A DNA stretch of 37,867 nucleotides from Actinomycetota bacterium (GCA_039795205.1 JBDKEO010000035.1:1-37867); one strand, 5' to 3'; shown: positions 7,722 through 37,836, counted from the first letter of the stretch. Made by a program: numbers and translations. Notes: generated by a model from the letters alone, not told the origin.

Positions 7722-7745
7722 TGGGGCAAAGCGTAGTGGCAGACT

Positions 7746-8048
7746 TTGACGGTGAACCTCTCCAACTTCGACGCAGAATCGGCAAAGAACTTTTCCCTGG
7801 TTGCTCTCGGTAGTTCGGTTTTCGTGGCGCTTCTCGTGTTGAAGTTCGCGAAATCGATCGTCACGAAGCTGATCTTGTTGATCGTCTGCGGCGCGTTGGG
7901 GTGGAGCTTTTTCAGTCAGCGCGACAGCCTGAATAGTTGTATAGATGCCGCACGCGCCCAGGCCAGTTCAGGTTCGTTGACGAGTCTGGAGTGCGAATTC
8001 TTCGGTCGATCATTGAAGATCGACAAGGACGGCGCTTCGCTGCAGTGA
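7746..8048 (+). CDS. Small membrane protein, hypothetical
   Basis: 100 aa with only TTG (7746) or GTG (7752) starts available. Two hydrophobic helices (LVALGSSVFVALLVL, LILLIVCGALGWSFF) and two Cys in the tail. The stop overlaps the GTG start of the next gene (GTGA at 8045-8048). Confidence 0.45.
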   Translation: MTVNLSNFDAESAKNFSLVALGSSVFVALLVLKFAKSIVTKLILLIVCGALGWSFFSQRDSLNSCIDAARAQASSGSLTSLECEFFGRSLKIDKDGASLQ

Positions 8049-10579: not shown

Positions 10580-10584
10580 GTCGC

Positions 10585-13039
<2,455 letters not shown>

Positions 13040-13985: not shown

Positions 13986-14006
13986 TTCACCACTGAGAGT
14001 GGTGAA
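13986..14006. promoter_or_regulatory. Perfect 9-bp inverted repeat TTCACCACT-gag-AGTGGTGAA in the ctaA / M23-peptidase divergent spacer (operator or leader hairpin)
   Basis: Read directly from the sequence. It is followed by CTCAACATTTTTGG on the + strand. Further CACCAC copies lie at 13896-13904, 13924-13929 and 13951-13956. Confidence 0.35.
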
Positions 14007-14095
14007 CTCAACATTTTTGGTCACTTTTCTCTCAAGATGCCCTGTTCCCGGGCCGATCCCTTCAGCGGATCTCACACCAAGCCAGGGAGCACATC

Positions 14096-23078: not shown

Positions 23079-23798
23079 GTGCCTGGCAGCGGTGGTCATG
23101 ATCTCTACTTTCGACAATTGCTCTCCGGACGCGATTTTGCCCGCGACGATCAAGTGGCAAACCAGATGCGCAACTTTGCCTATTTGATCGGCGACCCTAG
23201 AACGCGTAGGTGTGCGGTGATCGATCCCGCTTACGCGCCGCTTGAACTTCTCCAGATTGCTGCCGATGACGGGTTTGAAGTGGATTCGATCCTCATTTCG
23301 CATTATCACGCCGACCACTGCGGAGGGCGAATGATGGGTATGAGTCTTCCTGGAATCGTCGAAATCTTGAGCGCTCGATCCATGCCCGTGTTCGTCAATC
23401 GAAACGAAAGCGAGTGGATCATGAAGACCACCGGAGTCTCCATCGACTCGCTGAAGCTCGTCGAAGGCGGAGATGTTCTCGATGTCGGAGACGTTCGAGT
23501 CAGCCTCCTCCACACGCCAGGCCACACACCAGGCAGTCAATGTTTCATGGTCGACGGTCGACTGGTTTCGGGTGACACGATTTTCCTCGATGGATGTGGC
23601 CGAACCGATCTTCCTGGCGGAAATCCCGAAGATCTCTTTCGCAGCCTCGCCAAACTTGCGCAGTTGCCGGACGACACCGATCTCTACCCCGGTCACGACT
23701 ACTCACGGAAGACACACGCGCAGTTCAGCGAGGTCAAGCTGCACAACGTCGTGTATCGCGCGCAGACGATGGATGACTGGTTGAGACTGTTCGGCTAG
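23079..23798 (+). CDS. MBL-fold metallo-hydrolase (glyoxalase II / ETHE1 persulfide dioxygenase-like)
   Basis: 239 aa with GTG start. Contains LYFRQL..., SHYHADHCGG (HxHxDH), HTPGHTPGS, GDTIFLDGCGRTDLPGG and YPGHDY. Confidence 0.85.
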   Translation: MPGSGGHDLYFRQLLSGRDFARDDQVANQMRNFAYLIGDPRTRRCAVIDPAYAPLELLQIAADDGFEVDSILISHYHADHCGGRMMGMSLPGIVEILSARSMPVFVNRNESEWIMKTTGVSIDSLKLVEGGDVLDVGDVRVSLLHTPGHTPGSQCFMVDGRLVSGDTIFLDGCGRTDLPGGNPEDLFRSLAKLAQLPDDTDLYPGHDYSRKTHAQFSEVKLHNVVYRAQTMDDWLRLFG

Positions 23799-24518
23799 CT
23801 AGACGATCGCTCCCACGAGCGTGGACAACCCTGCCACTACCAGTAGTCCGAGCACGAGTATTCGAAAACGCGCTTCTGCCAGGCGACCTACGAGCCTGTT
23901 TCCGAGGAGAACGGAAATCGTCATCACTGGAAGACAGACGATGGTCGACACGACGATGGTTGCACTCAAATCGCCAGTGAGTGCGAACAGCGCGACACTG
24001 ATCAGGCCCGACACGAAGAAGATTCGTGCCAACGTGGCTCGGAACTGCAGCATTGGCATCCGTTGCGCCTGCATCGCGAGAACGATCGGTGGCCCATTCG
24101 TGGACGTTGCGATGAGCAGGACTCCACTGAGCACCCCGAGCAGATTCTCCGACCGTCTTCCTACCCGAAATCTGCCACCAAAGGCCACCACCGCCGTCCC
24201 GAACAGCACTGCGAGACCGACGATCAACCGAAGCACTTGGTCGTCCAGCAGGGTGAAGGCCGCATAGCCGAATGGGATGCCAACCAACGACGCGACGATG
24301 TATCGCAGTGCCGTCGAGCGCTGTGCATCGGCTCTGAGCAGTCTGGTTTGCCAACCACTGCTGATGGTTCCGAGACATGCCGACAGCACGACTGCCTCAT
24401 GCACATCTATACGAAGCGCAAAAAGTGGCACTGAAAGTAGGGCAAACCCGAAACCGGTGATCGACTGGAGCAAAGCGGTTGCCGCCACCACCAAAATGAC
24501 GAAGAGGAGATCGCTCAC
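23799..24518 (-). CDS. TauE/SafE-family (DUF81) anion permease or exporter
   Basis: 239 aa, about 7-8 TM helices. The N-terminus (LQSITGFGFALLSVPL) is typical of the family. Its stop directly abuts the MBL gene stop (TAG CTA at 23796-23801). Confidence 0.8.
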   Translation of the reverse strand: MSDLLFVILVVAATALLQSITGFGFALLSVPLFALRIDVHEAVVLSACLGTISSGWQTRLLRADAQRSTALRYIVASLVGIPFGYAAFTLLDDQVLRLIVGLAVLFGTAVVAFGGRFRVGRRSENLLGVLSGVLLIATSTNGPPIVLAMQAQRMPMLQFRATLARIFFVSGLISVALFALTGDLSATIVVSTIVCLPVMTISVLLGNRLVGRLAEARFRILVLGLLVVAGLSTLVGAIV

Positions 24519-24525
24519 TGATTGG

Positions 24526-25881
24526 TCATTTGGTGACGACAGCGTTCACGGACTCTTCGAATATCCGGGTGTGGACATCGACATCGTCAGAGGAATGAAG
24601 GGGGGACAGAAGCGCCATGTTGTGGAACGGCGTCAAGAGCACTCCCCTGTTGAGGGCTGCCAGATGGAAGTACGACTCCAATTCACTGTCGACGGAAGCG
24701 GCTGCGTCTCGTCCATTTCGTGGAGGTGAACTGAACCAGTATTCGGCGCGCACTCCGAGGCGCTGTACGTGCCAGTCAAGACTTCTCGAATTCACGACGT
24801 CTCGCACTCCCTCGGTCCAACGAATCGCCAAGGGTTCAGCTTTGGCAAAGTCCGCAGGCTGGAGTGAATTCGCCAGGGTCGCACGCATCGCCGCCATTCC
24901 GAACGCGCTACCACTCAACGTGCCCCCAACCCCCGAGACATCCACGTCATGACCGTGCATCTGGTCCTCGAGGACTCGCGAAACTGATTCAGCGATTCCG
25001 TATGCAGCGACCGGGACGCCGCCGCCGATCGTCTTGCCGATGATCACGAAGTCCGGCTCCAAATTCCACGCTTTGGTGCAGCCACCTGGTCCTGCACAGA
25101 TCGTGTGCGTTTCATCGATAGCGAGCAAGGTGCCGTGTCGGCGCGTGATCTCGCGGACTCCCTCCAAGTATCCGGGTTCGGGGAGGACGATCCCGATGTT
25201 CGTCAGCGCCGGCTCCATGAGCACCACTGCCACATCACCATGGGACAGGGCTCGATCAAGCGCGTCGAGGTCATTGAACGGCACGGCGCGTGTCGTTGTG
25301 CTTGGCTCCACTTGCGGTCCGATTGCTCCTGGCCGCGAGATCGTCGAGCCATCCTCGGACAGGATCACGAGGGCCTCGTCGACGGTGCCGTGATAACACC
25401 AGTCGTTGACGACGATCATCTTTCGTCGAGTCACATGTCGCGCGAATCGGAGCATGAAACGATTGGCGTCGGTGGCACTCAAACAAAACTGCCACTTCAT
25501 TTTGCCGAATCGATTGCTCAACTCGTTGGCCACCCACAACGCGTCAGCGGTCGGCATCATCGTCGTCAAACCACGCCGAGCCTGTCGGGAAATGGCGTCC
25601 GCAACGTCCTCGCGACCATGCCCCGTCATCGCTCCCGTATCTCCGAGACAAAAATCCACGTAACGGTTTCCGTCGACATCCAGGAACGACACTCCCTCGG
25701 CACTCTCCAGGAACAACGGAAAATCACCCGGCCATCGCACCATCCACGGCATGGGCACACCAGAAAGCATTTGTGCCTTGGCTTCCTGTGCGAGACGACG
25801 GGATTCGGGGTGTGCCTCGATGAAGCGTTCACGCTCCGCCTGCATCGCTGCGGACAAACGCCGTCTATCCACTGCGGTCAT
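24526..25881 (-). CDS. Class-III (GSA-aminomutase-like) PLP aminotransferase
   Basis: ATG at 25881 gives 451 aa (ORF open to 26298). Contains DFCLGDTGAMTGH, LAIDETHT and the PLP-Lys context IGKTIGGGVPVAAYG. It lies 7 nt upstream of the TauE gene on the same strand. Confidence 0.85.
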   Translation of the reverse strand: MTAVDRRRLSAAMQAERERFIEAHPESRRLAQEAKAQMLSGVPMPWMVRWPGDFPLFLESAEGVSFLDVDGNRYVDFCLGDTGAMTGHGREDVADAISRQARRGLTTMMPTADALWVANELSNRFGKMKWQFCLSATDANRFMLRFARHVTRRKMIVVNDWCYHGTVDEALVILSEDGSTISRPGAIGPQVEPSTTTRAVPFNDLDALDRALSHGDVAVVLMEPALTNIGIVLPEPGYLEGVREITRRHGTLLAIDETHTICAGPGGCTKAWNLEPDFVIIGKTIGGGVPVAAYGIAESVSRVLEDQMHGHDVDVSGVGGTLSGSAFGMAAMRATLANSLQPADFAKAEPLAIRWTEGVRDVVNSRSLDWHVQRLGVRAEYWFSSPPRNGRDAAASVDSELESYFHLAALNRGVLLTPFHNMALLSPLHSSDDVDVHTRIFEESVNAVVTK

Positions 25882-25892
25882 TGCTCCATTAT

Positions 25893-25904
25893 TGGCGATC
25901 GCCA
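25893..25904. promoter_or_regulatory. Perfect 12-bp palindrome TGGCGATCGCCA in the divergent promoter spacer (candidate operator)
   Basis: Read directly from the sequence. It lies in the 69-nt spacer between the aminotransferase ATG (25881) and the M20 amidase GTG (25951). Confidence 0.3.
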
Positions 25905-25950
25905 GTGATTGCCACCAAACCTTTCGAGTGGTGAGGAATACACTCATGAC

Positions 25951-27201
25951 GTGGTGTCGACTCTGCAGATCAACGGTCCGCGCCTGATGCGCAGGATCTT
26001 CGAACTGGCCGAGGTGGGCGCGATTCCCAACGGCGGTTGCGCACGCCTCGCCCTCACCGACGATGACCGAGCTGGTCGTGATTTGGTCGTTGCCTGGATG
26101 AGGGAACTCGCACTTGAGGTGACGATCGACAAGGTGGGCAACGTCGTCGGTACTTGGCAAGTGGGCTCGGGTGCACCGGTCATGACGGGATCGCACATCG
26201 ATACCGTGCGCACAGGCGGAAAGTACGACGGCAATCTCGGCGTCCTTGCCGGCCTGGAAGTGATTCAAACGATGCAGGAATCCGGACTCGTTCCGCAACG
26301 TCCGATTTCGGTTGCTTTCTTCACCAATGAAGAGGGTGCTCGTTTTGCGCCCGACATGCTCGGCTCATTGGTATACGTAGGTGGAATGAGCGTCGAAGCG
26401 GCCTTGGAGACGACGTCGATCGACGGAAAGAACTTCGGCGAGGAGCTCCGTGAGATTGGTTATGCAGGACCCGTGCCGTGCCCTGGCCCGACACCCCATG
26501 CATTCGTCGAGTTGCACATCGAACAGGGGCCGGTTCTGGAGGCCGAAGGAATCACGATTGGCTGCGTGGATGGCGTACAGGGAATCTCTTGGTCGGAACT
26601 CGAGATCCTCGGACAAAGCAACCATGCCGGCACCACCCCCATGGCACTCCGACATGATCCCGCCTATGTCGTGGGCCGAATCACCGTCTTCCTACGAGAG
26701 CTCGCGACCAAGATGGGACCACCGCAGGTCTGCACTGTCGGCAAGATCGACATCCACCCGAATTTGATCAATGTCGTGCCTGCGCGCGCCACGATGACCA
26801 TCGACGTGCGCAACACGGACGAGGCGCGGCTCCGCGAAGCAGAGTCGGAGATCACCGACTTCCTCGCCCATCTGGAGAAGGCTGAAGGCGTCACCATCAA
26901 CAAGCGGCAGCTTGCTCGTTTCGAGCCCGTCGTCTTCGACCCACGGGTGATCAAACTGATCGACGAATGCGCCAACGACATGGGTTTGTCGAGGAAGCAG
27001 ATGCCGAGTGGTGCAGGGCACGATGCACAGATGCTCGCGCGTGTTTGTCCGACTGCGATGATCTTCGTGCCGAGCGTGCGCGGGATCAGCCACAATCCTG
27101 CGGAGTTCACTAGCGAGGAGGACTTGGTGCTCGGTTCCACCCTGTTGCTCCGCGTCATGCATCGTCTATCGGAGACCGAATTCGCAGGCGTGTCATCGTG
27201 A
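25951..27201 (+). CDS. M20-family amidase of the hydantoinase/carbamoylase group (N-carbamoyl-L-amino-acid hydrolase / allantoate amidohydrolase / beta-ureidopropionase type)
   Basis: GTG at 25951, with GGTGAGGAA 12 nt upstream, gives 416 aa. An alternative TTG lies at 25909. Contains INGPRLMRRIFELAEVG, GSHIDTVRTGGKYDGNLGVLAGLEVI and SGAGHDAQ. Confidence 0.85.
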   Translation: MVSTLQINGPRLMRRIFELAEVGAIPNGGCARLALTDDDRAGRDLVVAWMRELALEVTIDKVGNVVGTWQVGSGAPVMTGSHIDTVRTGGKYDGNLGVLAGLEVIQTMQESGLVPQRPISVAFFTNEEGARFAPDMLGSLVYVGGMSVEAALETTSIDGKNFGEELREIGYAGPVPCPGPTPHAFVELHIEQGPVLEAEGITIGCVDGVQGISWSELEILGQSNHAGTTPMALRHDPAYVVGRITVFLRELATKMGPPQVCTVGKIDIHPNLINVVPARATMTIDVRNTDEARLREAESEITDFLAHLEKAEGVTINKRQLARFEPVVFDPRVIKLIDECANDMGLSRKQMPSGAGHDAQMLARVCPTAMIFVPSVRGISHNPAEFTSEEDLVLGSTLLLRVMHRLSETEFAGVSS

Positions 27202-28124
27202 CGAGAAACATCCGCGTTGCTGCTGCCCAAATGGGCCCGATTCAACGAGATCACGATCGTCCGCAGGTAGTGGAGCGACTGATCTCGTTGTTGCGTGATG
27301 CACATGCAAAGGGTGCCGAACTGGTGGTCTTTCCCGAACTTGCCCTGACCACCTTCTTCCCTCGCTGGTTCGTGGATGACATCAGCACGGCAGATCACTG
27401 GTACGAACGCTCGATGCCGTCACCGGTGACGCAGTCGCTGTTCGACGAGGCAAAGCGTCTCGGTGTCGGTTTCTGTCTCGGATACGCCGAACTCACCGAC
27501 GAGGGAGAGCGTTTCAATACGCAGATTCTCGTCGAACGTGACGGTCGGGTCGTCGCAAAATACCGCAAGGTACACATCCCCGGACACGAACACCACGAAC
27601 CCGATCGTCCGTTCCAACATGCCGAGCGCTACTACTTCACCCCAAGCAACGAAGGTTTCGGTGTGTGGAAGGCATTCGGTGGTCGGGTTGGCATGATGAT
27701 TTGCAACGACCGACGTTGGCCGGAGAGCTATCGCGTCATGGGCCTACAAGGTGTCGAGCTCATCTTGTGTGGTTACAACACTCCCTTGCACTACGCACCG
27801 GACCCGTCGCAGAACCCTCTCCAGAGCTTCCACAATGGACTCGTCATGCAGAGTGGCGCCTACCAGAACGGAACGTTCGTCGTCGGTGTCGCCAAGGGCG
27901 GTGTCGAAGAAGGAGTGGACAGCCTCGCGGACTCACAGATCATCGCCCCCTCGGGCGAGGTGTTGGCCAAGACGACGACATCCGCAGACGAGGTGGTAGT
28001 TGCCGACTGCAACCTGGACTGGTGCTACCAATACAAGAACACGCTCTTCGACTTCGACCGCTACCGGCGCCCCGAGGTGTACGGCAGGATCACGTCCCAA
28101 CGTGGCGCAGTACTCGCTGATTGA
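27198..28124 (+). CDS. Nitrilase-superfamily N-carbamoyl-D-amino-acid hydrolase (D-carbamoylase)-like enzyme
   Basis: 308 aa, GTGA-coupled to the M20 gene. The Glu-Lys-Cys triad contexts are intact (VVFPELALTTFFPRWF with Glu47, YRKVHIPG, MMICNDRRWPE). As I remember it, the match to Agrobacterium DCase runs the full length. Confidence 0.85.
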   Translation: MTRNIRVAAAQMGPIQRDHDRPQVVERLISLLRDAHAKGAELVVFPELALTTFFPRWFVDDISTADHWYERSMPSPVTQSLFDEAKRLGVGFCLGYAELTDEGERFNTQILVERDGRVVAKYRKVHIPGHEHHEPDRPFQHAERYYFTPSNEGFGVWKAFGGRVGMMICNDRRWPESYRVMGLQGVELILCGYNTPLHYAPDPSQNPLQSFHNGLVMQSGAYQNGTFVVGVAKGGVEEGVDSLADSQIIAPSGEVLAKTTTSADEVVVADCNLDWCYQYKNTLFDFDRYRRPEVYGRITSQRGAVLAD

Positions 28125-28177
28125 CATTCTGTAAAACTGAAACCCTTGTCGGATAAGGTACCCAGCAGGGTCAGGGG

Positions 28178-30796
28178 GTGTCAGTGGGGATGATGGACAC
28201 GAGCGAAACTGTCGAGACTTCAGCAGAGGTCGAATTCACTCTCAACGGGACGGCCGTCACCGTGCGCGGGCGACACCCGCACTTGTTGTCGGCGCTTCGC
28301 GACGAGCTGAACGTCACGTCCCCAAAGGACGGATGTTCGCCAAGTGGACAATGCGGATGTTGCACGGTCATCGTCAACGGGAAGGCAGTCGTCAGTTGTC
28401 AAACTCCCCTCACCAAGGTGGCAGACGGCACCGTCACCACGCTCGAGGGTTTCTCGGAAGATGAAAGGCGGGCATTCGCCGAGTCGTTTGCCGCCTGTGG
28501 TGGTCTGCAGTGTGGCTTCTGCATCCCGGGCATCGTCGTTCGCGCGAAGGCGCTGATCGACAAGAAGGGCGAGGGTTTAGAGCGAGGCGACATCAAGCGC
28601 CATCTCGGAGCCCATCTGTGCCGATGCACTGGATACGTCAAGATTCTCGATGCGATCGAGGCGGTTGCCAAGAAGCGCGTGCCTACGCCGACGACGAGTG
28701 CCGAGATCGGCTCGAGGTTCGCCAAATACGAGGCTTCCGAGCTCGCCCTCGGTGACCGCGGCTACATCGACGACATTCGCATTCCCGGCATGTTGCACGC
28801 CGCATTGCACCTCACCAAGCACGCGCGTGCCGAAGTGCTCCTCATCGATGTGAGCAAGGCGACCGCCGTACCGGGAGTGCGTGCCGTCTACACCGCTGCC
28901 GACATTCCCGGTGAACTGCTCGTCGGCATCATCTACAAGGACTGGCCGGTGATGATTCCGCAGGGCGGATTCACTTCCTATGCGGGCGACGTGCTCGCAA
29001 TCGTCGTCGCGGAAGACCGCCTCACGGCGCGAGCTGCAAGTGAATTGATCGAGGTGACCTACCGACCGCTCAAGCCGATCACGGATCCTTTCGAGGCCAT
29101 CGCTTCGAGCGAGATCGCGGTGTGGCAGACCGACGACAACGTCCTTTCGGTCAGCCAGTACCAACGCGGCGATGTCGATACCGCACGGCAGAGCTCGACA
29201 CATGCGGTGCAGCAGCGATTCACCACCCAACGCATCGAGCACGCCTTCCTCGAACCCGAAAGCACTCTGGCGGTGCCAAACGCCGACGGGACGGCGTTGC
29301 ACGTCTACTCGGGTGGTCAAGGCGTGTGGGACGACCGCAACGACATCGCTCGTGTGCTCGGCATTTCGAATGATCAGGTCACGGTCGAATTGGTCTCCAA
29401 CGGTGGTGCATTCGGTGGCAAGGAAGACATGAGCAATCAAGCCCATGCGGCGTTGGCGGCATGGCTCCTGAAGGCGCCCGTGCGGTGCACGCTCTCGCGC
29501 GAGGAGAGTTTGCTGATGCACGCGAAGCGACATCCGATCGTCATGGACTACGAAGCCGGTTGCGACGAGCAAGGCCGACTGACATTCCTGAAGGTGCGAG
29601 TCGTCGGAGATTCAGGGGCGTATGCATCAGTGGGCATGAAGGTGTTGGAACGAATGGCCGGTCATGCCAGTGGTCCGTATCACGTGCCTTCCATCGACGT
29701 ATCCGCCACCGCCGCGCGAACGAACAATCCGATTTGTGGTGCGTTCCGTGGATTCGGCGCCAATCAGGCGCAGTTTGCGATGGAGGGCGTGCTGGATCGC
29801 CTCGCCGAGAAGGTCGGCATCACGGGTTTCGAAATTCGTAAGCGCAACGTGATCAAGCCCGGAATGGTGTGGGGTCCAGGCCAAATCATGGACGATGGAT
29901 GTCTCGGCGCGGAACTCTGTCTCGACGAATTGCAGGCCGACTACGAACGGGCCCGCACGGATGGTTTCGCCGTGGGGATCGGTCTGGGATTGAAGAACAG
30001 TGGTCTCGGAAACGGTTTCAAGGAGATCACTCGTGCGGTCGTCCGCTTCTGCGAAGACGGCAGCGTAGAAGTCCGTCATGGTTGGACGGAGATGGGTCAG
30101 GGAATCCACACCGTCGCCCTGCAGGTAGCCGCTACCGAACTCGGCATCGACCCCGAACGGATCCGAGTCCTCGTCGACACCACCCGCGAACTCGGACTCG
30201 GACAAACGACCGGAAGCCGAGGAACGTTGATGGGTGCCGGCGCAGTCAAAGCCGCATGTGACGTGGCCAAGGCCGCAGATTGTGCGGTGGGTGTCGATCA
30301 CCTCGGCGAATACCGTGTCGACTGGACGACCAAACTCGGCGATCCCGGCGTAACCAATCCGATCATCCACTCGACATTCGGTTATGCGGCACAAATGGTG
30401 GTCATGAGTCGTGAAACCGGGAAGATAGTCAAGGTGATCGCGGCGCATGACGTCGGTCGGGCGATGAATCCCCAACTCTGTGAAGGCCAGATCGAAGGAA
30501 GCGTGCACATGGGCCTCGGCTATGCACTCACCGAGGACTTCCCGAGCGATCCCGAGACCGGCTTCCCACTAAACAACACACTGCGCAGCCTCGGCATTCT
30601 GCGTGCCAAAGACGTACCACCCATCGAGGTGCGGATCATCGAGTCTCCTCAGCCCAACTCGCCCTACGGAATCAAGGGTGTCGGCGAGATCGGACTGGTG
30701 CCGACGGCCGGTGCCGTAGCCGCAGCACTCCGACAGGCGACCGGAACATGGCACGACACGTTGCCCATGCAACGCGCGACAGGCGACGAGGACTGA
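28178..30796 (+). CDS. Fused 2x[2Fe-2S] plus molybdopterin-binding hydroxylase, no FAD domain (D. gigas MOP / XdhD-like architecture)
   Basis: 872 aa from GTG 28178 (ATG alternatives at 28190 and 28193). Fe-S motifs are GCSPSGQCGCCTV and QCGFCIPG...CRCTGY. Moco-domain motifs are GGAFGGKE, CGAFRGFGANQ and GVGEIGLVP. Confidence 0.85.
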   Translation: MSVGMMDTSETVETSAEVEFTLNGTAVTVRGRHPHLLSALRDELNVTSPKDGCSPSGQCGCCTVIVNGKAVVSCQTPLTKVADGTVTTLEGFSEDERRAFAESFAACGGLQCGFCIPGIVVRAKALIDKKGEGLERGDIKRHLGAHLCRCTGYVKILDAIEAVAKKRVPTPTTSAEIGSRFAKYEASELALGDRGYIDDIRIPGMLHAALHLTKHARAEVLLIDVSKATAVPGVRAVYTAADIPGELLVGIIYKDWPVMIPQGGFTSYAGDVLAIVVAEDRLTARAASELIEVTYRPLKPITDPFEAIASSEIAVWQTDDNVLSVSQYQRGDVDTARQSSTHAVQQRFTTQRIEHAFLEPESTLAVPNADGTALHVYSGGQGVWDDRNDIARVLGISNDQVTVELVSNGGAFGGKEDMSNQAHAALAAWLLKAPVRCTLSREESLLMHAKRHPIVMDYEAGCDEQGRLTFLKVRVVGDSGAYASVGMKVLERMAGHASGPYHVPSIDVSATAARTNNPICGAFRGFGANQAQFAMEGVLDRLAEKVGITGFEIRKRNVIKPGMVWGPGQIMDDGCLGAELCLDELQADYERARTDGFAVGIGLGLKNSGLGNGFKEITRAVVRFCEDGSVEVRHGWTEMGQGIHTVALQVAATELGIDPERIRVLVDTTRELGLGQTTGSRGTLMGAGAVKAACDVAKAADCAVGVDHLGEYRVDWTTKLGDPGVTNPIIHSTFGYAAQMVVMSRETGKIVKVIAAHDVGRAMNPQLCEGQIEGSVHMGLGYALTEDFPSDPETGFPLNNTLRSLGILRAKDVPPIEVRIIESPQPNSPYGIKGVGEIGLVPTAGAVAAALRQATGTWHDTLPMQRATGDED

Positions 30797-30803
30797 CCGT
30801 TCG

Positions 30804-31883
30804 ATGACGCTCGATTCGACGCAGACGACTGGTTTCGTCTGTGCGCACCATCACCTGTACTCCACACTCGCTCGAGGAATGCCAGCGCCTCCTCGCCAGA
30901 GTGAACACTTCACCGAAATCCTCGAGGACATCTGGTGGCGTCTCGATGCCGCACTCGATGAACAGATGCTCTATTGGTCAGCCGCCCTCGGTGCCGTGGA
31001 GGCGCTCTTGGTGGGCACCACTGCGATCGTCGACCACCACGAGTCACCACGCTTCATCGAGGGTTCATTGAGCGTGCTCGCCAAGGCATGTCGCGATGTC
31101 GGCGTGAGACTCAATACCAGTTACGGCGTCACCGACCGCTGGGACGACAGCGGCAACCTGCACAGCGTCGTCGAGCCGGGGTCACCGATGACCTCCGCCG
31201 CCCGTCGAGGTTTGGACGAATGCGATCGCTATCTCAGCAGTGGAGGCGAGGGCATGGTGGGACTCCATGCAGCCTTCACCTGTTCCGATGAGACGATCGC
31301 AGCGGCTGCTCAACTTGCGCAAAAACACGGAGTGGGCGTCCACATCCATGTCGCCGAGGGACCAATCGACAAGGATGCCGCCAAACGTTTGGCGGCCTTC
31401 GCCACCGACGACTGGCTTCTCGTGCATGGCGTGCACATGGACACTCCCCTGCGTGGCAGGCTCGTCCACAATCCACGCTCCAACATGAACAATGCAGTTG
31501 GTTATGCCCGTCCATCCACTCGCGAGAACACGATCCTGCTCGGCACTGATGGAATAGGCAGCGACATGCTGGATGAAGCCCGTGTCGCCTACGCACGCCT
31601 CCGCGAATTCGACGTTCAGGCCACACCGGAGACCGTGTGGGGATGGCTACGGAACAACCAAGCGTTGATGCCCGCCACCTCGCGCGATGTGGTGACATGG
31701 AACTATGACCACATGGACTCTCCGTGGCATCTGGCTTTCACCACCGGTGTTCGACCGATCAGAATTCAGGTGAACGACGACGTCGTGCTCGACAATGGCC
31801 TGCCCACCAAGATCGACATACACGAAGTTCGCGCCAAGGCAGCAGAACAGAGCAAACGACTCCACGAAAGGCTCAGCACATGA
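30804..31883 (+). CDS. SsnA-like amidohydrolase (cyclic amidase/aminohydrolase superfamily), N-terminally short
   Basis: 359 aa. [54 protein letters not shown] and [10 protein letters not shown] parallel remembered E. coli SsnA segments. The HxH motif starts at residue 15, and the start lies 7 nt after the upstream stop. Confidence 0.7.
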
Positions 31884-32920
31884 CCATCAGTCCACTCGCA
31901 TTCAATGACAAGGGCCACCTGCGGGCCGCGATTTACCTGCAAGATGCCCATCCACTGCGCGAGGGTATGGCTTTCGCCCAGTACGCCGAAGCAAAGGGAT
32001 TTGAGGCGGTGTGGCAGGCGGAGAGTCGCCTCGTACGCGAAGCCACCGTGCCCATGGCGGCATTCGCATCCGTCACCGAACGTCTCAAAGTTGGTTCGGG
32101 AGTCGTCGACTGCTGGAGCCGAAACCCGGCGAGACTCGCCGCGACCTTCTCGACGCTCGATGACCTCGCACCAGGTCGAGTGATCCTTGGTATTGGTGCG
32201 TGGTGGGATCCGTTGGCGCAGAAGGTGGGAATCAGTCGCAACAAGCCGCTCAAGGCGATGCGCGAGATCGTGACCGCAGTTCGCGCCCTTCTCAACAATG
32301 AGAACGTCACCTTTCAGGGCGAGTTCGTCCAACTCGATGGCGTGGAGCTGGACTACGTGTACCAGGATCGTCGCGCCAAGGACGTTCCCATCTACATCGG
32401 CGCGACTGGCATGCAGATGATGGAGTTGACCGGCGAAATCGCAGACGGTGTCGTGCTCAACTACCTCGTATCGCCCGACTACAACGCACAGGCCCTCGCC
32501 GCCCTGGAAAAGGGTGCAGCCAAGGCCGGCAGGTCATTGGAATCGATCGACCGTCCGCAACTCGTCGTCTGCAGCGTGCATGAGGACCGCAAGGTCGCCT
32601 TGGACATGGCGCGCATGATGGTCACTCAATACCTCGGTCAGCAACCACACATCATGAAGGCATCAGGCGTCCCCCAGAGCCTCCTCGACAAAGTCGGCGA
32701 GGTACTGACCTGGCCGGCAACACACGAACAGGTGGAACGTGCATCGAAGCTCGTTCCCGATGAAATCGTGCAGATGCTCACGGCATCGGGCACGCCGGCA
32801 GAGGCACGTCAGGCCGTCCGCACCTACCTCGAGAATGGTGCGACTTGCCCGATTCTGTATCCGCTCGGCGACGTGCGTGCGATGATCGACACCTTCTCGG
32901 GATGGGACGGCACGTTGTGA
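31880..32920 (+). CDS. Luciferase-like (LLM class) flavin- or F420-dependent oxidoreductase
   Basis: ATG at 31880 overlaps the upstream stop (ATGA) and gives 346 aa. Contains [22 protein letters not shown] and VLNYL, a pattern typical of Mer/LLM TIM-barrel enzymes. Confidence 0.8.
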
Positions 32921-33762
32921 CCGTCGTCAATGCCCGCTCCGTCGAGGAGGCACTCGCAGCGCTCACAGCGCATCCAGAGGCGCGACTTGTCGCAGGCGGA
33001 ACGGACTTGATGGTCGAAGTCAACTTTGGTCGTCACGATGTTCACGACGTGGTGTCGTTGCGCCGCGTCGATGAGCTCAGGTCATGGCACCGCAACGACG
33101 ACGGCAGCATCTTCATCGGGTCAGGACTGCCCTACCGACACATGGAGCAAGGTGAACTGGCTCGAGCGTTGCCCGCGCTGGCCCAAGCAGCACGAACGGT
33201 CGGATCGCCGCAGATCCGTGCGGCGGGAACCCTGGGGGGAAACCTCGGCACGTGTTCTCCCGCCGGTGATGGACTCCCCGTGCTTGCAGCACTCGAAGCA
33301 GACGTCCACCTGCGATCCATTGGTGGCGAACGTCGGGTCAAGTTCGTGGACTTCATGGTCGGCGTGAAGAAGAACGCTGCTCGCCGCGACGAACTCATCA
33401 CTGGTGTCACGGTGCCCCGTCTCGACGGTTTCCAGGCCTACTCGAAGGTGGGCGTGCGCAACGCCATGGTGATCGCGATCGCCTCGGCATGTTTCGTCCA
33501 CGATTCGACGAACGATCGGGTCAGGCTGGCACTCGGTGCAGTTGCCCCCACGATCGTTCGGTGCACGGATGCTGAGCAGTTTCTCGAGGGAATCCTGGGT
33601 TCACACAAGGCGGTCACCGACGATAACGCCCGCGAATTCGGGCGACGTGCGGCGAGTGCATCCCGCCCGATCACCGATCATCGATCCACCGCCGAGTATC
33701 GCAAACATGCCGTAGCGGTACTGGCGAGGCGCTTCGCAGAAAGGGCTTTCAATGTCCGCTGA
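32917..33762 (+). CDS. FAD-binding medium subunit of a molybdenum hydroxylase (CoxM/XdhB/YgfM-like)
   Basis: GTG at 32917 overlaps the upstream stop (GTGA) and gives 281 aa. Contains [26 protein letters not shown] and a C-terminal CO_deh_flav_C-like region. Confidence 0.85.
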
Positions 33763-34234
33763 GCACTATGCCCTACAAGTCAACGGAACTCGTCACGAGG
33801 TCCGCGATTCATGGGTGGGTGAAAGCCTGCTCTACGTCCTGCGGGAACGGCTGGGCTATTACGGCACAAAGGGTGCGTGTGAGCAGGGCGAATGCGGTAG
33901 TTGCACGGTACTCATGGATGGTGAGGCCGTCTGCTCGTGCTTGGTGCTCGCGGCCACTGCCCAAGGATCAGAGATCGTCACCGTGGAGGGCCTCGCCAAG
34001 GATGGTGAACTCAACGAAGTGCAGCGAGCATTCGTCGACAAGGGTGCCGTGCAGTGTGGATTCTGTACACCCGGTTTGATCGTCGCGATCACCCACCTCC
34101 TCGACACGGATCCGAATCCGAGCGAGTCCAAGATCAAGGAATCCATTTCCGGAAACATTTGCCGCTGTACCGGTTACGGACGAATTTTCGACGCCGTGCA
34201 ACAGGCCATCGAGGTCCGGGGGATGAACCGATGA
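33752..34234 (+). CDS. [2Fe-2S]-binding small subunit of a molybdenum hydroxylase (CoxS-like)
   Basis: 160 aa. Contains CEQGECGSCTV, SC, QCGFCTPG and CRCTGY. It overlaps the FAD subunit gene by 11 nt. Confidence 0.9.
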   Translation: MSAEHYALQVNGTRHEVRDSWVGESLLYVLRERLGYYGTKGACEQGECGSCTVLMDGEAVCSCLVLAATAQGSEIVTVEGLAKDGELNEVQRAFVDKGAVQCGFCTPGLIVAITHLLDTDPNPSESKIKESISGNICRCTGYGRIFDAVQQAIEVRGMNR

Positions 34235-36492
34235 GCACCACGATCACGGCCAATCGCAACACCCTCGGCACGAGCGTCCTGCGCCCCGACGGAGCGGCGA
34301 AAGTTCGCGGGGACTTCCAATTCTCTTCCGACGAATTCGCCACCAACATGCTGTGGGGGGCAACCTTGCGCTCCCCTCACCCATATGCGCGAATTCTCTC
34401 GATCGACGTTTCTGCTGCGCTGAAGATCAATGGTGTCTCCTGCGTCCTGCTCGCCGATGACGTCCCCGGCAAGGCCACCTATGGCTTGATCTCGAGCGAC
34501 CAACCGGTCTTCGCCAAGGACGTCGTGCGCTACATGGGTGAACCGATCGCCGCGGTCGCTGCCGATCATCCCGAAACCTGCAAACGCGCCCTCCAAGCGA
34601 TCGTCGTCGAGTTCGAAGTGTTGTCACCGCTGGTCGACCCAGAGCAGTGTCTCGACGATTCGATTGCCCCGATTCACCCTGATGGCAACGTCTTTCGTCG
34701 TCAACGCATCGTTCGCGGCGATCAGACGATCGTGGGCGAAGTTCAGGTGGAAGGCACGTACGACATCGGCATGCAGGATCAGGCGTTCCTGGGCCTCGAG
34801 GCGGCACTGGCCATTCCCGGCCACGACGGCCGATCAGTCGAGCTGCACATCGCCACGCAATGGTTGCACGAGGATCGCAAGCAGATCGCTGATTGCTTGG
34901 GACTTCCCGAAGAAGCCGTCCAGCTCGTCCTCGGGGGTGTCGGAGGTGCCTTTGGTGCACGCGAGGACATCAGTCTGCAAGTGCATAGTTGTCTTCTGGC
35001 GCTCCGCACGGGGCGGCCAGTCAAGATGCAATACAGCCGTGAGGAGAGCTTCTTCGGGCATGTCCACCGACACCCCGCAAAGATCTGGATGCGTCACCAC
35101 GCCACGCGAGACGGCCGTATCCAGCGAATCGAGGCACGCATGTTGATGGACGGCGGTGCGTACACGAGCACTTCACCCGCCGTGTTGATCAATGCGATCA
35201 CCCACACTCAAGGTCCATATGTCTGCGAGAACGCCACAGTCGAAGGAATCGCAGTGCGTACGAACAATCCGCCGTGTGGGGCCATGCGAGGTTTCGGTGT
35301 GGTGCAGGCTTGTTTCGCCCACGAACGACAGATGGACAAGTTGGCCAAGGCGTGTGGCATCGACCCAGTCGACATCCGACTCCGCAATGCCATGTCCAAG
35401 GGCGATCTGCTGATCACGGGTCAACCGATGGACTCCGTCGCCCCCGTAGCACGCTGCATCACCGAGACTGCCGCCATTCCCCTACCCGACGATCCGGAGG
35501 GCGGTGATCCACTGCTCCTTCCGGGCGGTTCGGGTCTGACCGCCGAGCGACGCAACATTCGGCGAGGAGTCGGCTGGGGCGTATCGATGAAGAACCTCAT
35601 GTACAGCGAAGGTTTCGACGACTACAGCACCGCCCGCTGCACGCTCCGTGACGGAGTCGCCCACCTCAAATTCGCTACGTCCGAAGTGGGCCAAGGCTTC
35701 GTCACCCTGGCCATTCAGATCGCCACGAGCATCCTCGGCGTGGATCATGTCGAACTCGAGCAGATCGACACCCGAATCGGCAGCGCCGGTTCCACGTCGG
35801 CGTCCCGCCAGACGTGGATGAGTGGCGGCGCCCTCGATGGAGCTTGCCGCATGGTGCGGGAGATGCTCTTCCAGAAAGTCGGCGCCGAGCATGGCATCGA
35901 CCCTCTTCGACTCGCGATCGTCGACACTGACGTCGTCGACACGATGGGTACGTTGCGCATACCGGTGCGCGAGGCAAGCGCCGGCAGCACCCTTGCCCAC
36001 ACGTTCGAGCATCACCACCGACCCACGAGCGATCTGGACGAGAACGGTCAGGGCAACTGTCACGTTGCCTTCGCCTTCGTTGCCCACCGCGCAGTCGTGG
36101 ACGTCGACCCCGATCTGGGGCTGGTCAAGGTCATCCAAATTGCCACCGCTCAAGACGTCGGTCGTGTCCTCAACCCGCTGTCAGCGATTGGCCAAATCGA
36201 AGGTGGAATCGCCCAAGGACTCGGTCTTGCCGTCATGGAGGAGATCGTCATCGACCAGGGGCGCGTGCGCAACCCGAGCTTCACGGACTATCTCCTGCCC
36301 ACGGCGCTCGATGCGCCAGACGTCGAGGCCGTCTTCATCGAAGAGCCGGAACCCATGGCTCCGCTCGGTGCCAAGGGAATTGGCGAGCCTCCGTGCATCT
36401 CCGTGACTCCGGCAATCGTGGCTGCCATCAGCAACGCGATCGGCAAGAACATCGACCGTACACCCGTGCGGCCACAGGACATCTGCCTCTAG
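34231..36492 (+). CDS. Molybdopterin-binding large subunit of a xanthine dehydrogenase/aldehyde oxidase-family hydroxylase
   Basis: ATG at 34231 overlaps the upstream stop (ATGA) and gives 753 aa. Contains GGAFGARED, CGAMRGFGVVQ and GIGEPP. I did not find the CO-dehydrogenase active-site loop (AYRCSFR or AYRGAGR). Confidence 0.9.
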   Translation: MSTTITANRNTLGTSVLRPDGAAKVRGDFQFSSDEFATNMLWGATLRSPHPYARILSIDVSAALKINGVSCVLLADDVPGKATYGLISSDQPVFAKDVVRYMGEPIAAVAADHPETCKRALQAIVVEFEVLSPLVDPEQCLDDSIAPIHPDGNVFRRQRIVRGDQTIVGEVQVEGTYDIGMQDQAFLGLEAALAIPGHDGRSVELHIATQWLHEDRKQIADCLGLPEEAVQLVLGGVGGAFGAREDISLQVHSCLLALRTGRPVKMQYSREESFFGHVHRHPAKIWMRHHATRDGRIQRIEARMLMDGGAYTSTSPAVLINAITHTQGPYVCENATVEGIAVRTNNPPCGAMRGFGVVQACFAHERQMDKLAKACGIDPVDIRLRNAMSKGDLLITGQPMDSVAPVARCITETAAIPLPDDPEGGDPLLLPGGSGLTAERRNIRRGVGWGVSMKNLMYSEGFDDYSTARCTLRDGVAHLKFATSEVGQGFVTLAIQIATSILGVDHVELEQIDTRIGSAGSTSASRQTWMSGGALDGACRMVREMLFQKVGAEHGIDPLRLAIVDTDVVDTMGTLRIPVREASAGSTLAHTFEHHHRPTSDLDENGQGNCHVAFAFVAHRAVVDVDPDLGLVKVIQIATAQDVGRVLNPLSAIGQIEGGIAQGLGLAVMEEIVIDQGRVRNPSFTDYLLPTALDAPDVEAVFIEEPEPMAPLGAKGIGEPPCISVTPAIVAAISNAIGKNIDRTPVRPQDICL

Positions 36493-37730
36493 TTATTCAC
36501 CGCGATACGCCAGGTCGTCCAGGCCAACAGGATTGACGCAAAGACGAGGGACGACAACGAGAGAGCGTGATAGCCGACTGCCGAACGGATGAAACCGCTC
36601 GAGAAACCAGCCAGTGCCCCACACCCACTCATGAGGAAGTCGGCGGCGCCTTGCGTGCGAATCCGCAATTCGATGGGGATCGAATCCACGAGCAAACTCG
36701 AACCACCGATCAACCCGAAACTCCATCCGATTCCGAGCAGCCACAGCGCAGGAAACAACAGCGTCGGCGATTCGCCCGACAATGCAGCCAACGCTGTAGC
36801 CGAAATGGTGAGACCTGCGCCCACCACGATGGTGGCCAGCCTGCCACGACGATCACTGAACCGACCTACGAGCGGACTGAATGCGAACATGCCGGCGATG
36901 TGCAAGGAGATCACGAATTGACTGATCGACTCGTGGCCGTGTTCCTTCATGTGTACCGGAGTCATGGTCATCACCGCGACCATGGTGGCCTGTGAAATCG
37001 CCATACTGCCGAAGGCGAGTTGAGCGAGACGTGACGAGCGCAACACTGCGAACATCTCCGCAAAGCCAGTCCTCGGCACCTCCCCCACCGACACGTCCGA
37101 GTTCTCTCGTTGCACATGCAGGGGGTCAGGTCGAAGGCGCAACAACGCGTTGACGAGCGAAGTCAGGAAGAACAAGCCGGCAAACACCCACGGCCCCGTG
37201 TATTGACGCCAACCGAACAACGCCACTCCGAGCTCCTGTGCCGGTTGGATCAACAGCGGACCGAACACCGCCCCGAATGTCGAAGCAAAAAGAATTCGAC
37301 TCATCGCACGACCACGCTCAGCAGGAAGCGCCAGATCGGTGGCCGCATAGCGAGAAAGCAAGTTTGCTGCCTGTCCATTACCGAAGAAGAACAAGCCCAC
37401 CAGGAAGACTGTGAGCGATTGTCGCTCTACCCCAAGCCCGGCGAGCAATCCTCCACCGATGGCAAGTCCATATCCCAATACGAGGCCAGAACGTCGCCCT
37501 CGTCCGCTCATTCTTCGCGCCAGTATTTGCGCCATGATCGCCGTGCCCATCGTCACCGTCGCGCTCGCGATTCCACCCCAGGGTGTCTTCTGTCCAAGGA
37601 TCTCCTGCACTACGAACGCACCGACCGTTACCGCAGCCGCGAGTGCCGCGGATCCCGCAACCTGCCCGAGCACGAGTACGCGCAACGTCCGCTGCTGGAT
37701 CAGTGCGATTTCATCGGCGGTATGACTCAT
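36489..37730 (-). CDS. MFS transporter
   Basis: About 413 aa, 12 predicted hydrophobic helices and an MFS loop-like motif (RRMSGRGRR). ATG at 37730 or GTG at 37736 could be the start. Its stop overlaps the convergent large-subunit stop (CTAG at 36489-36492). Confidence 0.8.
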   Translation of the reverse strand: MSHTADEIALIQQRTLRVLVLGQVAGSAALAAAVTVGAFVVQEILGQKTPWGGIASATVTMGTAIMAQILARRMSGRGRRSGLVLGYGLAIGGGLLAGLGVERQSLTVFLVGLFFFGNGQAANLLSRYAATDLALPAERGRAMSRILFASTFGAVFGPLLIQPAQELGVALFGWRQYTGPWVFAGLFFLTSLVNALLRLRPDPLHVQRENSDVSVGEVPRTGFAEMFAVLRSSRLAQLAFGSMAISQATMVAVMTMTPVHMKEHGHESISQFVISLHIAGMFAFSPLVGRFSDRRGRLATIVVGAGLTISATALAALSGESPTLLFPALWLLGIGWSFGLIGGSSLLVDSIPIELRIRTQGAADFLMSGCGALAGFSSGFIRSAVGYHALSLSSLVFASILLAWTTWRIAVNN

Positions 37731-37749
37731 GACCACACGAACCTAGCAA

Positions 37750-37836
37750 TGGTGTCGAAGGGGGGACTTGAACCCCCACGCCCTTTCGAGCGCCAGCCCC
37801 TCAAGCTGGTGCGTCTGCCAATTTCGCCACTTCGAC
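37750..37836 (-). tRNA. tRNA-Leu (anticodon GAG), class II with long variable arm, CCA encoded
   Basis: The reverse complement reads GTCGAAG TG GCG AAATTGGCAGA CGC A CCAGC TTGAGGG GCTGG CGCTCGAAAGGGCG T GGGGG TTCAAGT CCCCC CTTCGAC A CCA. That gives a 7-bp acceptor stem, 5-bp anticodon stem, GAG anticodon, 5-bp variable-arm stem and a canonical T-arm. Confidence 0.9.

Follow-up and report, generated by a model that had tools for sequence, protein, structure and literature searches.

An eight-gene operon of aerobic Acidimicrobiia that may encode a hydrolytic version of the 2,8-dioxopurine pathway, probably dependent on F420

Which pathway is served by a run of closely packed genes for molybdenum hydroxylases, an SsnA-like amidohydrolase, a luciferase-like oxidoreductase and two carbamoylase-type amidases is the question raised by a 37,867-nucleotide stretch of DNA from an Actinomycetota bacterium (GCA_039795205.1, JBDKEO010000035.1:1-37867), which was analyzed over its whole length and is called the window here. 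An initial annotation, made from the sequence alone, had described these genes as an N-heterocycle degradation system that matched no nameable pathway. That verdict no longer stands, and the best reading of the cluster is as a form of the 2,8-dioxopurine pathway in which several enzymes have been replaced. With moderate confidence, we propose that eight + strand genes form an operon for a hydrolytic, probably F420-dependent version of this pathway in an aerobic member of the Acidimicrobiia. The eight genes are as follows.

25951-27201, + strand: M20 amidase of the hydantoinase/carbamoylase (AllC-like) family (TIGR01879, NF006771)
27198-28124, + strand: N-carbamoyl-D-amino-acid hydrolase (D-carbamoylase, or DCase) of the CN-hydrolase fold (PDB matches, motifs)
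28178-30796, + strand: fused [2Fe-2S]/molybdopterin hydroxylase of TIGR03311 type (near-full-length match), called the fused xanthine dehydrogenase (XDH) here
30804-31883, + strand: N-terminally truncated SsnA-family amidohydrolase of 359 amino acids (homology to Escherichia coli SsnA, partial TIGR03314 match), called the short SsnA here
31880-32920, + strand: luciferase-like (LLM) oxidoreductase (PF00296, 231 bits)
32917-33762, + strand: FAD-binding subunit of a three-subunit XDH (PF00941, PF03450; XdhB-like, 192 bits)
33752-34234, + strand: [2Fe-2S] subunit of the three-subunit XDH (PF01799, PF00111; XdhC/PucE-like)
34231-36492, + strand: molybdopterin subunit of a PucD-type XDH (TIGR03196 pucD equivalog)

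The open reading frames (ORFs) of these genes, which together span 25951-36492, were all confirmed in order and strand in the window sequence, and the families given in the initial annotation proved essentially correct in comparisons against Pfam, NCBIfam and the PDB. Its list of junctions was exact, each having been re-read from the sequence. A GTGA overlap at 27198 joins the M20 and CN-hydrolase genes, gaps of 53 nt and 7 nt follow the CN-hydrolase gene and the fused XDH gene, respectively, and the start of the LLM gene overlaps the stop codon of the SsnA-like gene in an ATGA at 31880. The LLM and FAD subunit genes are linked by a GTGA at 32917, the FAD and Fe-S subunit genes overlap by 11 nt at 33752, and the Fe-S subunit gene meets that of the molybdenum cofactor (Moco) subunit in an ATGA at 34231. 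Terminator-like sites within the cluster were not above chance (5 found versus 10.8 ± 3.5 expected). There is good support for the eight genes forming one unit.

The chemistry of the E. coli yge/ygf locus, which the initial annotation had treated as only partly resolved, was reconstituted in 2025 as the 2,8-dioxopurine (reductive uricolytic) pathway (PMC12507026; bioRxiv 10.1101/2025.04.24.650524). In that pathway urate is converted to 2,8-dioxopurine by XdhD-YgfM or, in Clostridium sporogenes, by a fused XdhAC; 2,8-dioxopurine is dearomatized by YgfK or UacX, SsnA then opens the ring to give ureidomethyl-hydantoin, HyuA converts this hydantoin to 2,3-diureidopropionate, YgeW or UacY together with YgeY strips the ureido groups, and YgeX turns 2,3-diaminopropionate into pyruvate (PMC12507026; bioRxiv 10.1101/2025.04.24.650524). 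The discovery papers and a commentary present the pathway as anaerobic and largely host associated, and it is said to mark the divide between aerobic and anaerobic purine catabolism (PMC12507026; bioRxiv 10.1101/2025.04.24.650524). By neighborhood analysis only, a PF00296 “F420-dependent” protein was reported to replace YgfK/UacX in SsnA clusters of Chloroflexota (Li et al. 2025, PMC12507026). Our literature searches found no paper describing an Acidimicrobiia variant, the closest being this one-line Chloroflexota note.

The outline drawn in the initial annotation, which ran from Moco enzymes through a redox step by LLM and ring opening by the SsnA-like enzyme to two decarbamoylations and amine handling, holds up as a proposal, and a scheme in which every step is inferred from homology and gene context can be given as follows. 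The PucD-type FAD/Fe-S/Moco dehydrogenase would oxidize hypoxanthine and xanthine to urate, and the fused Fe-S/Moco enzyme of TIGR03311 type would remove the 6-oxo group of urate to yield 2,8-dioxopurine. LLM, with F420H2, would then reduce and so dearomatize 2,8-dioxopurine in place of YgfK or UacX, and the short SsnA, translationally coupled to LLM, would hydrolyze the amidine bond to give ureidomethyl-hydantoin or 5-ureido-dihydrouracil. A cyclic amidohydrolase from outside the window would open the remaining ring to 2,3-diureidopropionate. The D-carbamoylase would remove the 2-ureido group, in keeping with the R (D) configuration proposed for the intermediates. The 3-ureido group would be left to the AllC-like M20 amidase, since 2,3-diureidopropionate is an analogue of allantoate. 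Both ureido cleavages would be hydrolytic, releasing ammonia and CO2 and yielding no ATP through a carbamate kinase; the cluster has neither a carbamoyltransferase nor a carbamate kinase, and forgoing ATP at this step fits a respiring host, as suggested by the heme A synthase CtaA. The resulting 2,3-diaminopropionate would pass to an aminotransferase resembling glutamate-1-semialdehyde aminomutase (GSAM) in the Ilumatobacteraceae-type lineage of the window and to YgeX in sister lineages, which is the least secure step of the scheme.

The arrangement of these genes is conserved. Species-representative genomes were scanned with an alignment of six short-SsnA sequences, and at least 592 relatives were found. 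The best 80 of these were all from Acidimicrobiia and included members of the Ilumatobacteraceae, the Microthrixaceae, the Acidimicrobiaceae, “Ca. Aldehydirespiratoraceae” and the sponge-associated “Ca. Poriferisodalis.” The proteins of the window and of the E. coli pathway were mapped by tblastn onto these best 80 loci and three metagenomic contigs; counts given below out of 43 refer to the non-duplicate loci whose flanks extend 7 kb or more upstream and 6 kb or more downstream of SsnA. The D-carbamoylase was detected in 33 of the 43 loci, M20, the fused XDH and LLM in 30 each, and the three XDH subunits in 24 to 28. The order M20-DCase-fusedXDH-SsnA-LLM persists from 68% to 56% SsnA identity, that is, from Ilumatobacteraceae to Microthrixaceae. 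Conservation of the neighborhood across Actinomycetota, which the initial annotation had proposed as a check, is thus borne out in this class: the same order recurs in dozens of species-level Acidimicrobiia genomes and is not a matter of chance.

The proposed replacements are also reflected in which genes exclude one another. LLM (30/43) and YgfK (2/43) never occur in the same locus, nor do the D-carbamoylase (33/43) and YgeW (2/43). In loci L073 and L077, a YgfK homolog (36 to 37% identity over 95% of E. coli YgfK) comes no more than about 15 nt after a short SsnA that is 58% identical to that of the window, and a YgeW-like carbamoyltransferase, a carbamate kinase (YqeA) and an XdhD-like enzyme (43% identity to E. 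coli XdhD) are encoded nearby. These two loci are a canonical, ATP-yielding flavor of the pathway inside the short-SsnA clade, and because YgfK directly follows an SsnA of the same clade in them, LLM can be said to occupy the slot of YgfK. They also carry ThrC-like and CysK-like pyridoxal phosphate (PLP) enzymes; the L077 cluster lies at 598-14081, and one of the metagenome-assembled genomes comes from a mud-labeled sample. The fused XDH and LLM are both present in 28 of the 43 loci and both absent from 11, and only 4 loci have one of them alone. The clean loss of both from six species-level loci, described below, supports their being one two-step module; their genes are not adjacent but flank that of SsnA.

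Other loci tie the cluster to purines and to a three-carbon product. A YgeX-like gene (33 to 40% tblastn identity to E. coli YgeX) directly follows LLM in 10 of 82 short-SsnA loci; the one that was profile scanned, in L075, overlaps the LLM stop codon and passes the diaminopropionate (DAP) ammonia-lyase equivalog NF006058 (336, cutoff 276). A GuaD-like amidohydrolase (24 to 28% tblastn identity to E. coli GuaD) lies near the cluster in 11 of the 43 loci, and in the two that were scanned (L075 and L060) it is an 8-oxoguanine deaminase, which forms urate (603 in L075, cutoff 532). HyuA-like genes (30 to 42% tblastn identity to E. coli HyuA) occur in 3 of the 43, and the only one scanned, in L060, encodes a cyclic amidohydrolase below all cutoffs. 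Locus L089 (the contig that carries P0279) is of the canonical type, with an ornithine transcarbamoylase (OTCase)-like protein, a YgfK-like protein, DAP ammonia-lyase, a fused XDH, a full-length SsnA and a D-hydantoinase, and its fused XDH gene lies directly upstream of SsnA, the same position as in the window. A second gene set, downstream and on the opposite strand in L046, L050, L065 and L076, comprises an XdhD-like enzyme (38 to 39% identity to E. coli XdhD), a distantly SsnA-like amidohydrolase (27 to 29%), a second LLM (about 27%) and a protein resembling YqeC. This set may represent a paralogous pathway of Moco hydroxylases that includes a marker of the selenium trait.

The identification of LLM as an oxidoreductase of the luciferase-like family, made in the initial annotation, is upheld by its PF00296 match. 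Its 16 best NCBIfam matches are all F420-type LLM families, none of which reaches its cutoff, the best being Mer (methylene-tetrahydromethanopterin reductase; NF002619, 177 against a cutoff of 276). All 9 PDB matches are F420 enzymes, again with Mer as the best (129 bits), and FMN monooxygenases score far lower. LLM is therefore predicted to be probably F420H2 dependent, and we propose it as the dearomatizing reductase of 2,8-dioxopurine that replaces YgfK/UacX. No statement on F420 in Acidimicrobiia was found in a review of the cofactor. The best 120 LLM homologs are all from Acidimicrobiia and at least 84% identical. LLM is also the most conserved protein of the cluster, with 84 to 91% identity where SsnA has 60 to 76% and the FAD subunit 53 to 66% (L002 to L086), which indicates unusually strong constraint.

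Over the barrel, the short SsnA shows 38% identity to its E. coli counterpart (E = 1e-54). Its sequence starts at the HxH metal motif and is without the first ~55 residues of full-length SsnA, for which reason it misses the cutoff of TIGR03314 (IPR017700), scoring 217 against 455 and matching only profile positions 59-353 of 441. Its metal and HxxE residues are invariant in alignments, it carries an insert of ~15 residues at about residues 113-129, and its AlphaFold2 model (pLDDT 94.6) has the fold of a subtype-III deaminase-like amidohydrolase. The possibility that the 359-amino-acid ORF is a pseudogene was rejected on account of this pLDDT, of the invariant catalytic residues and of a length of ~355 amino acids that is kept in thousands of homologs. 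The SsnA-like call of the initial annotation thus fails at the TIGR03314 threshold, while the 38% identity and the genomic context favor an SsnA-type role, and we propose that the enzyme opens the ring of reduced 2,8-dioxopurine. Surveys built on the curated SsnA model, such as those based on InterPro, miss the Acidimicrobiia short-SsnA clade, which truncation puts below threshold, and since the survey of Li et al. 2025 used IPR017700 (TIGR03314), the clade was probably unseen there. In L079, L082, L084 and L085 a short SsnA is solitary, with an acyl-CoA dehydrogenase, an OpuAC/ABC transporter, a wax-ester synthase and SbcC among the neighbors. The genes of the pathway are thus not always clustered in Acidimicrobiia.

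The fused XDH covers positions 2-843 of the 848 in TIGR03311 with 814 bits against a cutoff of 830, so that the identification made in the initial annotation is supported by a full-length match while the threshold is narrowly missed. It is 47% identical over its full length to the fused XDH of L089, which itself passes TIGR03311 (859, cutoff 830). Orthology to E. coli XdhD was considered and rejected in favor of a TIGR03311-type enzyme, as the identity is 24% and TIGR03313 is matched at 180 bits. For the 2,8-dioxopurine dehydrogenase of C. sporogenes, the Moco domains are given as residues 307-839 (Liu et al. 2025, bioRxiv 10.1101/2025.04.24.650524), which fits the TIGR03311 architecture of ~850 amino acids and not the 956 amino acids of XdhD. 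The initial annotation had both Moco enzymes hydroxylate a ring, and for the fused enzyme this is probably wrong; the TIGR03311-type enzyme of the known pathway works in reverse and strips the 6-oxo group of urate. We therefore propose, by homology, that the fused XDH is a 2,8-dioxopurine dehydrogenase (urate 6-dehydroxylase). Residues equivalent to the active-site Glu and Arg of canonical XDHs are retained in this protein, within the motifs GGKED and FRGFG, and a pairwise alignment places Gln opposite each of them in E. coli XdhD; should the two enzymes both produce 2,8-dioxopurine, their active-site solutions would differ. The fused XDH has no FAD domain of its own, and the FAD subunit encoded downstream might serve it as well. 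The large Moco subunit of the three-subunit enzyme passes the TIGR03196 pucD equivalog (825, cutoff 784), with subunits carrying FAD_binding_5/CO_deh_flav_C and Fer2_2 encoded immediately upstream, as in a PucCDE-type XDH.

Both amidases were named correctly at the outset. The M20 protein, for which GTG 25951 was picked as the start from where the profile match begins, passes TIGR01879 (411, cutoff 204), as its original assignment to the carbamoylase family had implied, and also the “allantoate amidohydrolase” subfamily model NF006771 (417, cutoff 399). The PDB structures closest to it are carbamoylase-family amidases, L-carbamoylase and N-carbamoyl-beta-alanine amidohydrolase. Orthology to E. 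coli YgeY was rejected (E = 0.001 over 99 residues), and the M20 amidase is proposed to be a functional analogue of YgeY that would split off the 3-ureido (beta-ureido) group from 2,3-diureidopropionate or from albizziin. The CN-hydrolase, originally called a D-carbamoylase-like enzyme of the nitrilase fold, matches PDB 6lcg at 393 bits and the Agrobacterium D-carbamoylases at 336 to 338 bits, and it conserves the context of the catalytic triad and the substrate-binding motif CNDRRW. By these motifs and matches it is predicted to be a bona fide D-carbamoylase, and we propose that it cleaves the 2-ureido group of a D-configured intermediate and so replaces YgeW/UacY.

For the three-carbon diamine, the divergently transcribed aminotransferase gene (24526-25881) is a tentative outlet in place of YgeX. 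It is present in 12 of the 43 loci and never together with DAP ammonia-lyase (5/43), and its role is deduced from this alternation alone. The true start is ATG 25881, giving a protein of 451 amino acids versus 590 for the ORF. The protein passes NF005453 (622, cutoff 425), and its closest structure is PDB 5ykr, a “probable aminotransferase” (430 bits), followed by glutamate-1-semialdehyde aminomutases; no paper was found on 5ykr/5ykt.

Several observations weigh against the 2,8-dioxopurine reading. Use of a reductive route by an aerobic host (CtaA) is left unexplained by it. Every sizeable ORF of the window was scanned, and none encodes a hydantoinase, dihydropyrimidinase or allantoinase; a hydantoinase-like gene accompanies only 3 of the 43 related loci, and de novo clustering of the neighboring ORFs in related loci, in which an ABC ATPase and housekeeping genes were the recurring neighbors, yielded no conserved hydantoinase substitute. 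YgeX is absent from the window, the substrate of the aminotransferase is guessed at, and lineage by itself may account for the alternation of this enzyme with YgeX. The fused XDH falls just short of its equivalog cutoff (814 versus 830), LLM reaches the cutoff of no F420-type family, and the specificity of the short SsnA may differ from that of SsnA, as it fails TIGR03314, lacks part of the beta-sandwich and has the 15-residue insert. In six species-level loci (L020, L024, L033, L036, L039 and L067), the fused XDH and LLM are cleanly gone and M20-DCase-SsnA-FAD-FeS-Moco is kept, with junctions of 12 nt and ~58 nt (in L020, around 7800-14700). No YgfK, UacX or LLM is in view at the Chloroflexota-type loci L087, L090 and L091 either, which have a full-length SsnA, a FAD/Fe-S/XdhA-like XDH, OTCase, a CysK-like PLP enzyme, adenine deaminase (passing TIGR01178), 8-oxoguanine deaminase (passing its model) and an NMT1-type binding protein (L087, 8162-18277). 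The persistence of SsnA in these two groups of loci suggests that it may use a substrate that needs neither enzyme, and a strictly linear model does not explain the retention of SsnA without the fused XDH and LLM.

Part of this evidence would be accommodated if the cluster were a mosaic of adjacent, separate functions that are co-transcribed and do not form one linear pathway, which we consider unlikely. The three-subunit XDH would then make urate, the D-carbamoylase and M20 would scavenge nitrogen from N-carbamoyl amino acids or from ureides such as allantoate, and SsnA, LLM and the fused XDH would act on another heterocycle. The joint loss of the fused XDH and LLM with the rest kept, the position of the three-subunit XDH downstream, upstream or divergent according to lineage, the solitary short SsnA of several genomes and the passing of the “allantoate amidohydrolase” model by M20 are all consistent with such independence. 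Translational coupling across all eight genes is not, and neither is the retention of the M20-DCase-fusedXDH-SsnA-LLM order from Ilumatobacteraceae to Microthrixaceae at 56 to 68% SsnA identity. The DAP ammonia-lyase gene directly after LLM in sister loci also argues for a single pathway, since it is sensible there only if the ureido cleavages act on a C3 skeleton derived from SsnA. The same gene bears on an oxidative route for urate or another N-heterocycle, which we regard as distinctly improbable and in which LLM would be an FMN monooxygenase, the fused Moco enzyme a second hydroxylase (e.g., a urate or 8-oxopurine dehydrogenase), and SsnA would deaminate or open the oxidized ring to give an allantoate-like ureide for M20 and the D-carbamoylase. 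Such a route would suit an aerobic host (CtaA), the failure of LLM to reach any F420-family cutoff, the canonical XDH Glu/Arg of the fused XDH (GGKED, FRGFG) that E. coli XdhD lacks, and a window without hydantoinase or DAP lyase. However, the significant structural and hidden Markov model relatives of LLM are all F420 reductases or dehydrogenases, with FMN monooxygenases far lower, no flavin reductase partner for LLM is encoded in the window, and LLM alternates with the reductase YgfK. Sister loci that end in DAP ammonia-lyase moreover imply that all three carbons are retained and thus that the route is reductive.

Nor need the substrate be a purine at all, and the cluster might act on a pterin or lumazine, or on a pyrimidine by a barbiturate-like route, although we judge this very improbable. 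In that case ring hydroxylation would fall to the XDHs and reduction of a pterin-type ring to a Mer-like F420 enzyme, and the SsnA-like protein would be an isoxanthopterin/pterin-type deaminase or a ring hydrolase. Enzymes of the XDH family oxidize pterins, the best named relative of LLM, methylene-tetrahydromethanopterin reductase, acts on a pterin, and isocytosine and triazine deaminases are among the fold neighbors of SsnA. However, the similarity to Mer amounts to only ~129 bits, which is typical for any F420 LLM, the large XDH subunit scores above the equivalog cutoff for the xanthine dehydrogenase PucD, and the closest characterized SsnA acts on reduced 2,8-dioxopurine. Links to purines are also present in related loci, with 8-oxoguanine deaminase and DAP ammonia-lyase in sister loci and adenine deaminase in the Chloroflexota-type locus.

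The 2,8-dioxopurine reading is further defined by what the cluster shares with named systems and what it lacks. The canonical clusters of E. coli (ygeW-ygeX-ygeY-hyuA-yqeA ... ygfK-ssnA-ygfM-xdhD), Clostridioides difficile and C. sporogenes likewise have an SsnA-family gene adjoining a reductase gene, two ureido-cleaving enzymes and an XDH nearby; the fused Fe-S/Moco XDH homolog directly upstream of SsnA has its parallel in the canonical-type L089, and among the sister loci of Acidimicrobiia there are some with DAP ammonia-lyase and a few with YgfK, YgeW and carbamate kinase. In contrast to these clusters, the window has LLM for YgfK/UacX, a CN-hydrolase D-carbamoylase for YgeW/UacY and an AllC-family M20 for YgeY, it lacks HyuA, YgeX, carbamate kinase and YqeB/YqeC, its SsnA is short and below TIGR03314, and its host is not a gut anaerobe but an actinobacterium with an aerobic, free-living mode of life. 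ORF scans of the window confirmed the genes listed as missing in the initial annotation, namely, hydantoinase, uricase/allantoinase, ygfK, yqeB/yqeC/selD and any regulator. No homolog of the YgfK (TIGR03315) or UacX (PydA-like) reductase, no ortholog of YgeW, UacY or YgeY, no YqeB, YqeC or SelD, and no hydantoin racemase or regulator gene is encoded in it. As several of the canonical components are absent and its SsnA is below threshold, the cluster is not counted as a canonical member here; its gene context indicates a function like that of one. The Chloroflexota SsnA clusters (Li et al. 2025, bioinformatic) have the same proposed replacement of YgfK/UacX by an LLM beside SsnA, in another phylum.

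Other purine, hydantoin and pyrimidine systems resemble the cluster in part. With the classical aerobic purine/ureide route (Bacillus subtilis pucABCDE-pucLM-pucH-pucF-pucG; E. coli allB-allC) it shares a PucD/PucC/PucE-type XDH, an AllC-family M20 and a nearby aminotransferase. However, uricase/HpxO, HIU hydrolase, OHCU decarboxylase and allantoinase are not encoded in the window, the aminotransferase is of class III and GSAM-like rather than of the class-V PucG type, and the classical route has no place for SsnA, LLM, the fused XDH or the D-carbamoylase. The hyu systems of Agrobacterium and relatives have crystallized D-carbamoylases to which the CN-hydrolase of the window is close, with catalytic and substrate-binding motifs kept, but the window lacks a D-hydantoinase, a hydantoin racemase and a hydantoin permease, and the gene lies amid Moco hydroxylases, SsnA and LLM. 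The reductive pyrimidine (Pyd) pathway (PydA, PydB, PydC) has the same logic of dearomatization by reduction, hydrolytic opening and decarbamoylation, and beta-ureidopropionases are supplied by both the M20 and the CN-hydrolase families. The window differs from it in having no PydA/PydB homolog, two XDH-family enzymes and an SsnA-type (deaminase-like) ring opener.

Lakes, oceans, sponges and soils are the sources of the Acidimicrobiia genomes, at least 80 at species level, in which the cluster occurs. If the scheme is correct, the pathway is not confined to anaerobes and abundant free-living aerobes also use a 2,8-dioxopurine route, which would have consequences for how nitrogen from dissolved purines and urate is recycled in freshwater and the sea. 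The scheme would further give F420 a new physiological role, the dearomatization of purines, and provide non-orthologous alternatives at four steps: LLM (for YgfK/UacX), the D-carbamoylase (YgeW/UacY), the carbamoylase-type M20 (YgeY) and perhaps the aminotransferase (YgeX). Such oxygen-tolerant, Fe-S-poor and possibly selenium-free alternatives could serve in engineered urate-lowering probiotics. The widest version of the proposal, that aerobic, free-living Acidimicrobiia of plankton and soil run an O2-independent, selenium-independent and fully hydrolytic 2,8-dioxopurine pathway with an F420H2-dependent LLM, a barrel-only SsnA without a clustered hydantoinase and an aminotransferase acting on 2,3-diaminopropionate, is speculative, and we would call it doubtful in its entirety. 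In this version the sequence of reactions from hypoxanthine could be redox neutral, with two XDH oxidations paying for two reductions, and would then offer a cheap means of scavenging nitrogen in oligotrophic waters.

The operon is flanked in the window by the following features.

13005-13904, - strand: heme A synthase CtaA (family match)
23079-23798, + strand: MBL-fold gene, glyoxalase II/persulfide dioxygenase-like (TIGR03413, 107 against a cutoff of 201; PDB 4ysb, ETHE1 4chl)
23799-24518, - strand: TauE/SafE-type anion exporter (PF01925, 95 bits), 7 nt downstream of the aminotransferase gene
24526-25881, - strand: class-III (GSAM-like, PRK07046) aminotransferase (NF005453)
25882-25950, no strand: divergent intergenic region of 69 bp from the aminotransferase gene to the M20 gene
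36489-37736, - strand: MFS transporter (PF07690, 107 bits), convergent and overlapping the operon end by 4 nt
37750-37836, - strand: tRNA-Leu(GAG) (Rfam)

ORF positions and strands agree with the initial annotation in placing the aminotransferase and TauE genes divergently and the MFS gene convergently. Its figure of 10 to 12 cluster genes is sound for the eight + strand genes and uncertain for the MFS and aminotransferase genes, and it should probably not include TauE, which appears to be a partner of the MBL-fold gene. The end of the MBL-fold gene abuts that of the convergent TauE gene exactly (23798/23799), and TauE stays beside it in relatives that have lost the aminotransferase (L020, L024 and L039), so that TauE probably lies outside purine catabolism. 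This suggests that the two genes pair a sulfite exporter with a persulfide dioxygenase and play no part in purine breakdown. The MBL-fold gene was considered as a ring-opening candidate and rejected as glyoxalase II/persulfide dioxygenase-like. The MFS transporter, which has no NCBIfam match and is found at this position only in loci of the Ilumatobacteraceae type (8/43), is a possible carrier of substrate or product.

The intergenic region 25882-25950 is presumed to be the promoter region of both divergent transcription units; a promoter scan of it gave one weak sigma-70-like match (- strand, 25915-25888), which is at chance level. An Rfam scan of the window detected the flanking tRNA-Leu only and no riboswitch. 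The G+C content of the window is 57 to 62%. The host is taken to be an aerobe on account of the heme A synthase gene ctaA. A ProA-like dehydrogenase and a hexapeptide acetyltransferase, encoded upstream, are syntenic in Ilumatobacteraceae, with nothing evident to connect them to the pathway. Also encoded in the window are RNase D, a MobA-like molybdenum cofactor nucleotidyltransferase and IMP dehydrogenase (5607-7303 and 10585-12195, both - strand). Two + strand ORFs (5718-6782 and 6779-7813) have no family match; they lie opposite the RNase D and MobA-like genes, which they overlap, and are probably shadow ORFs.

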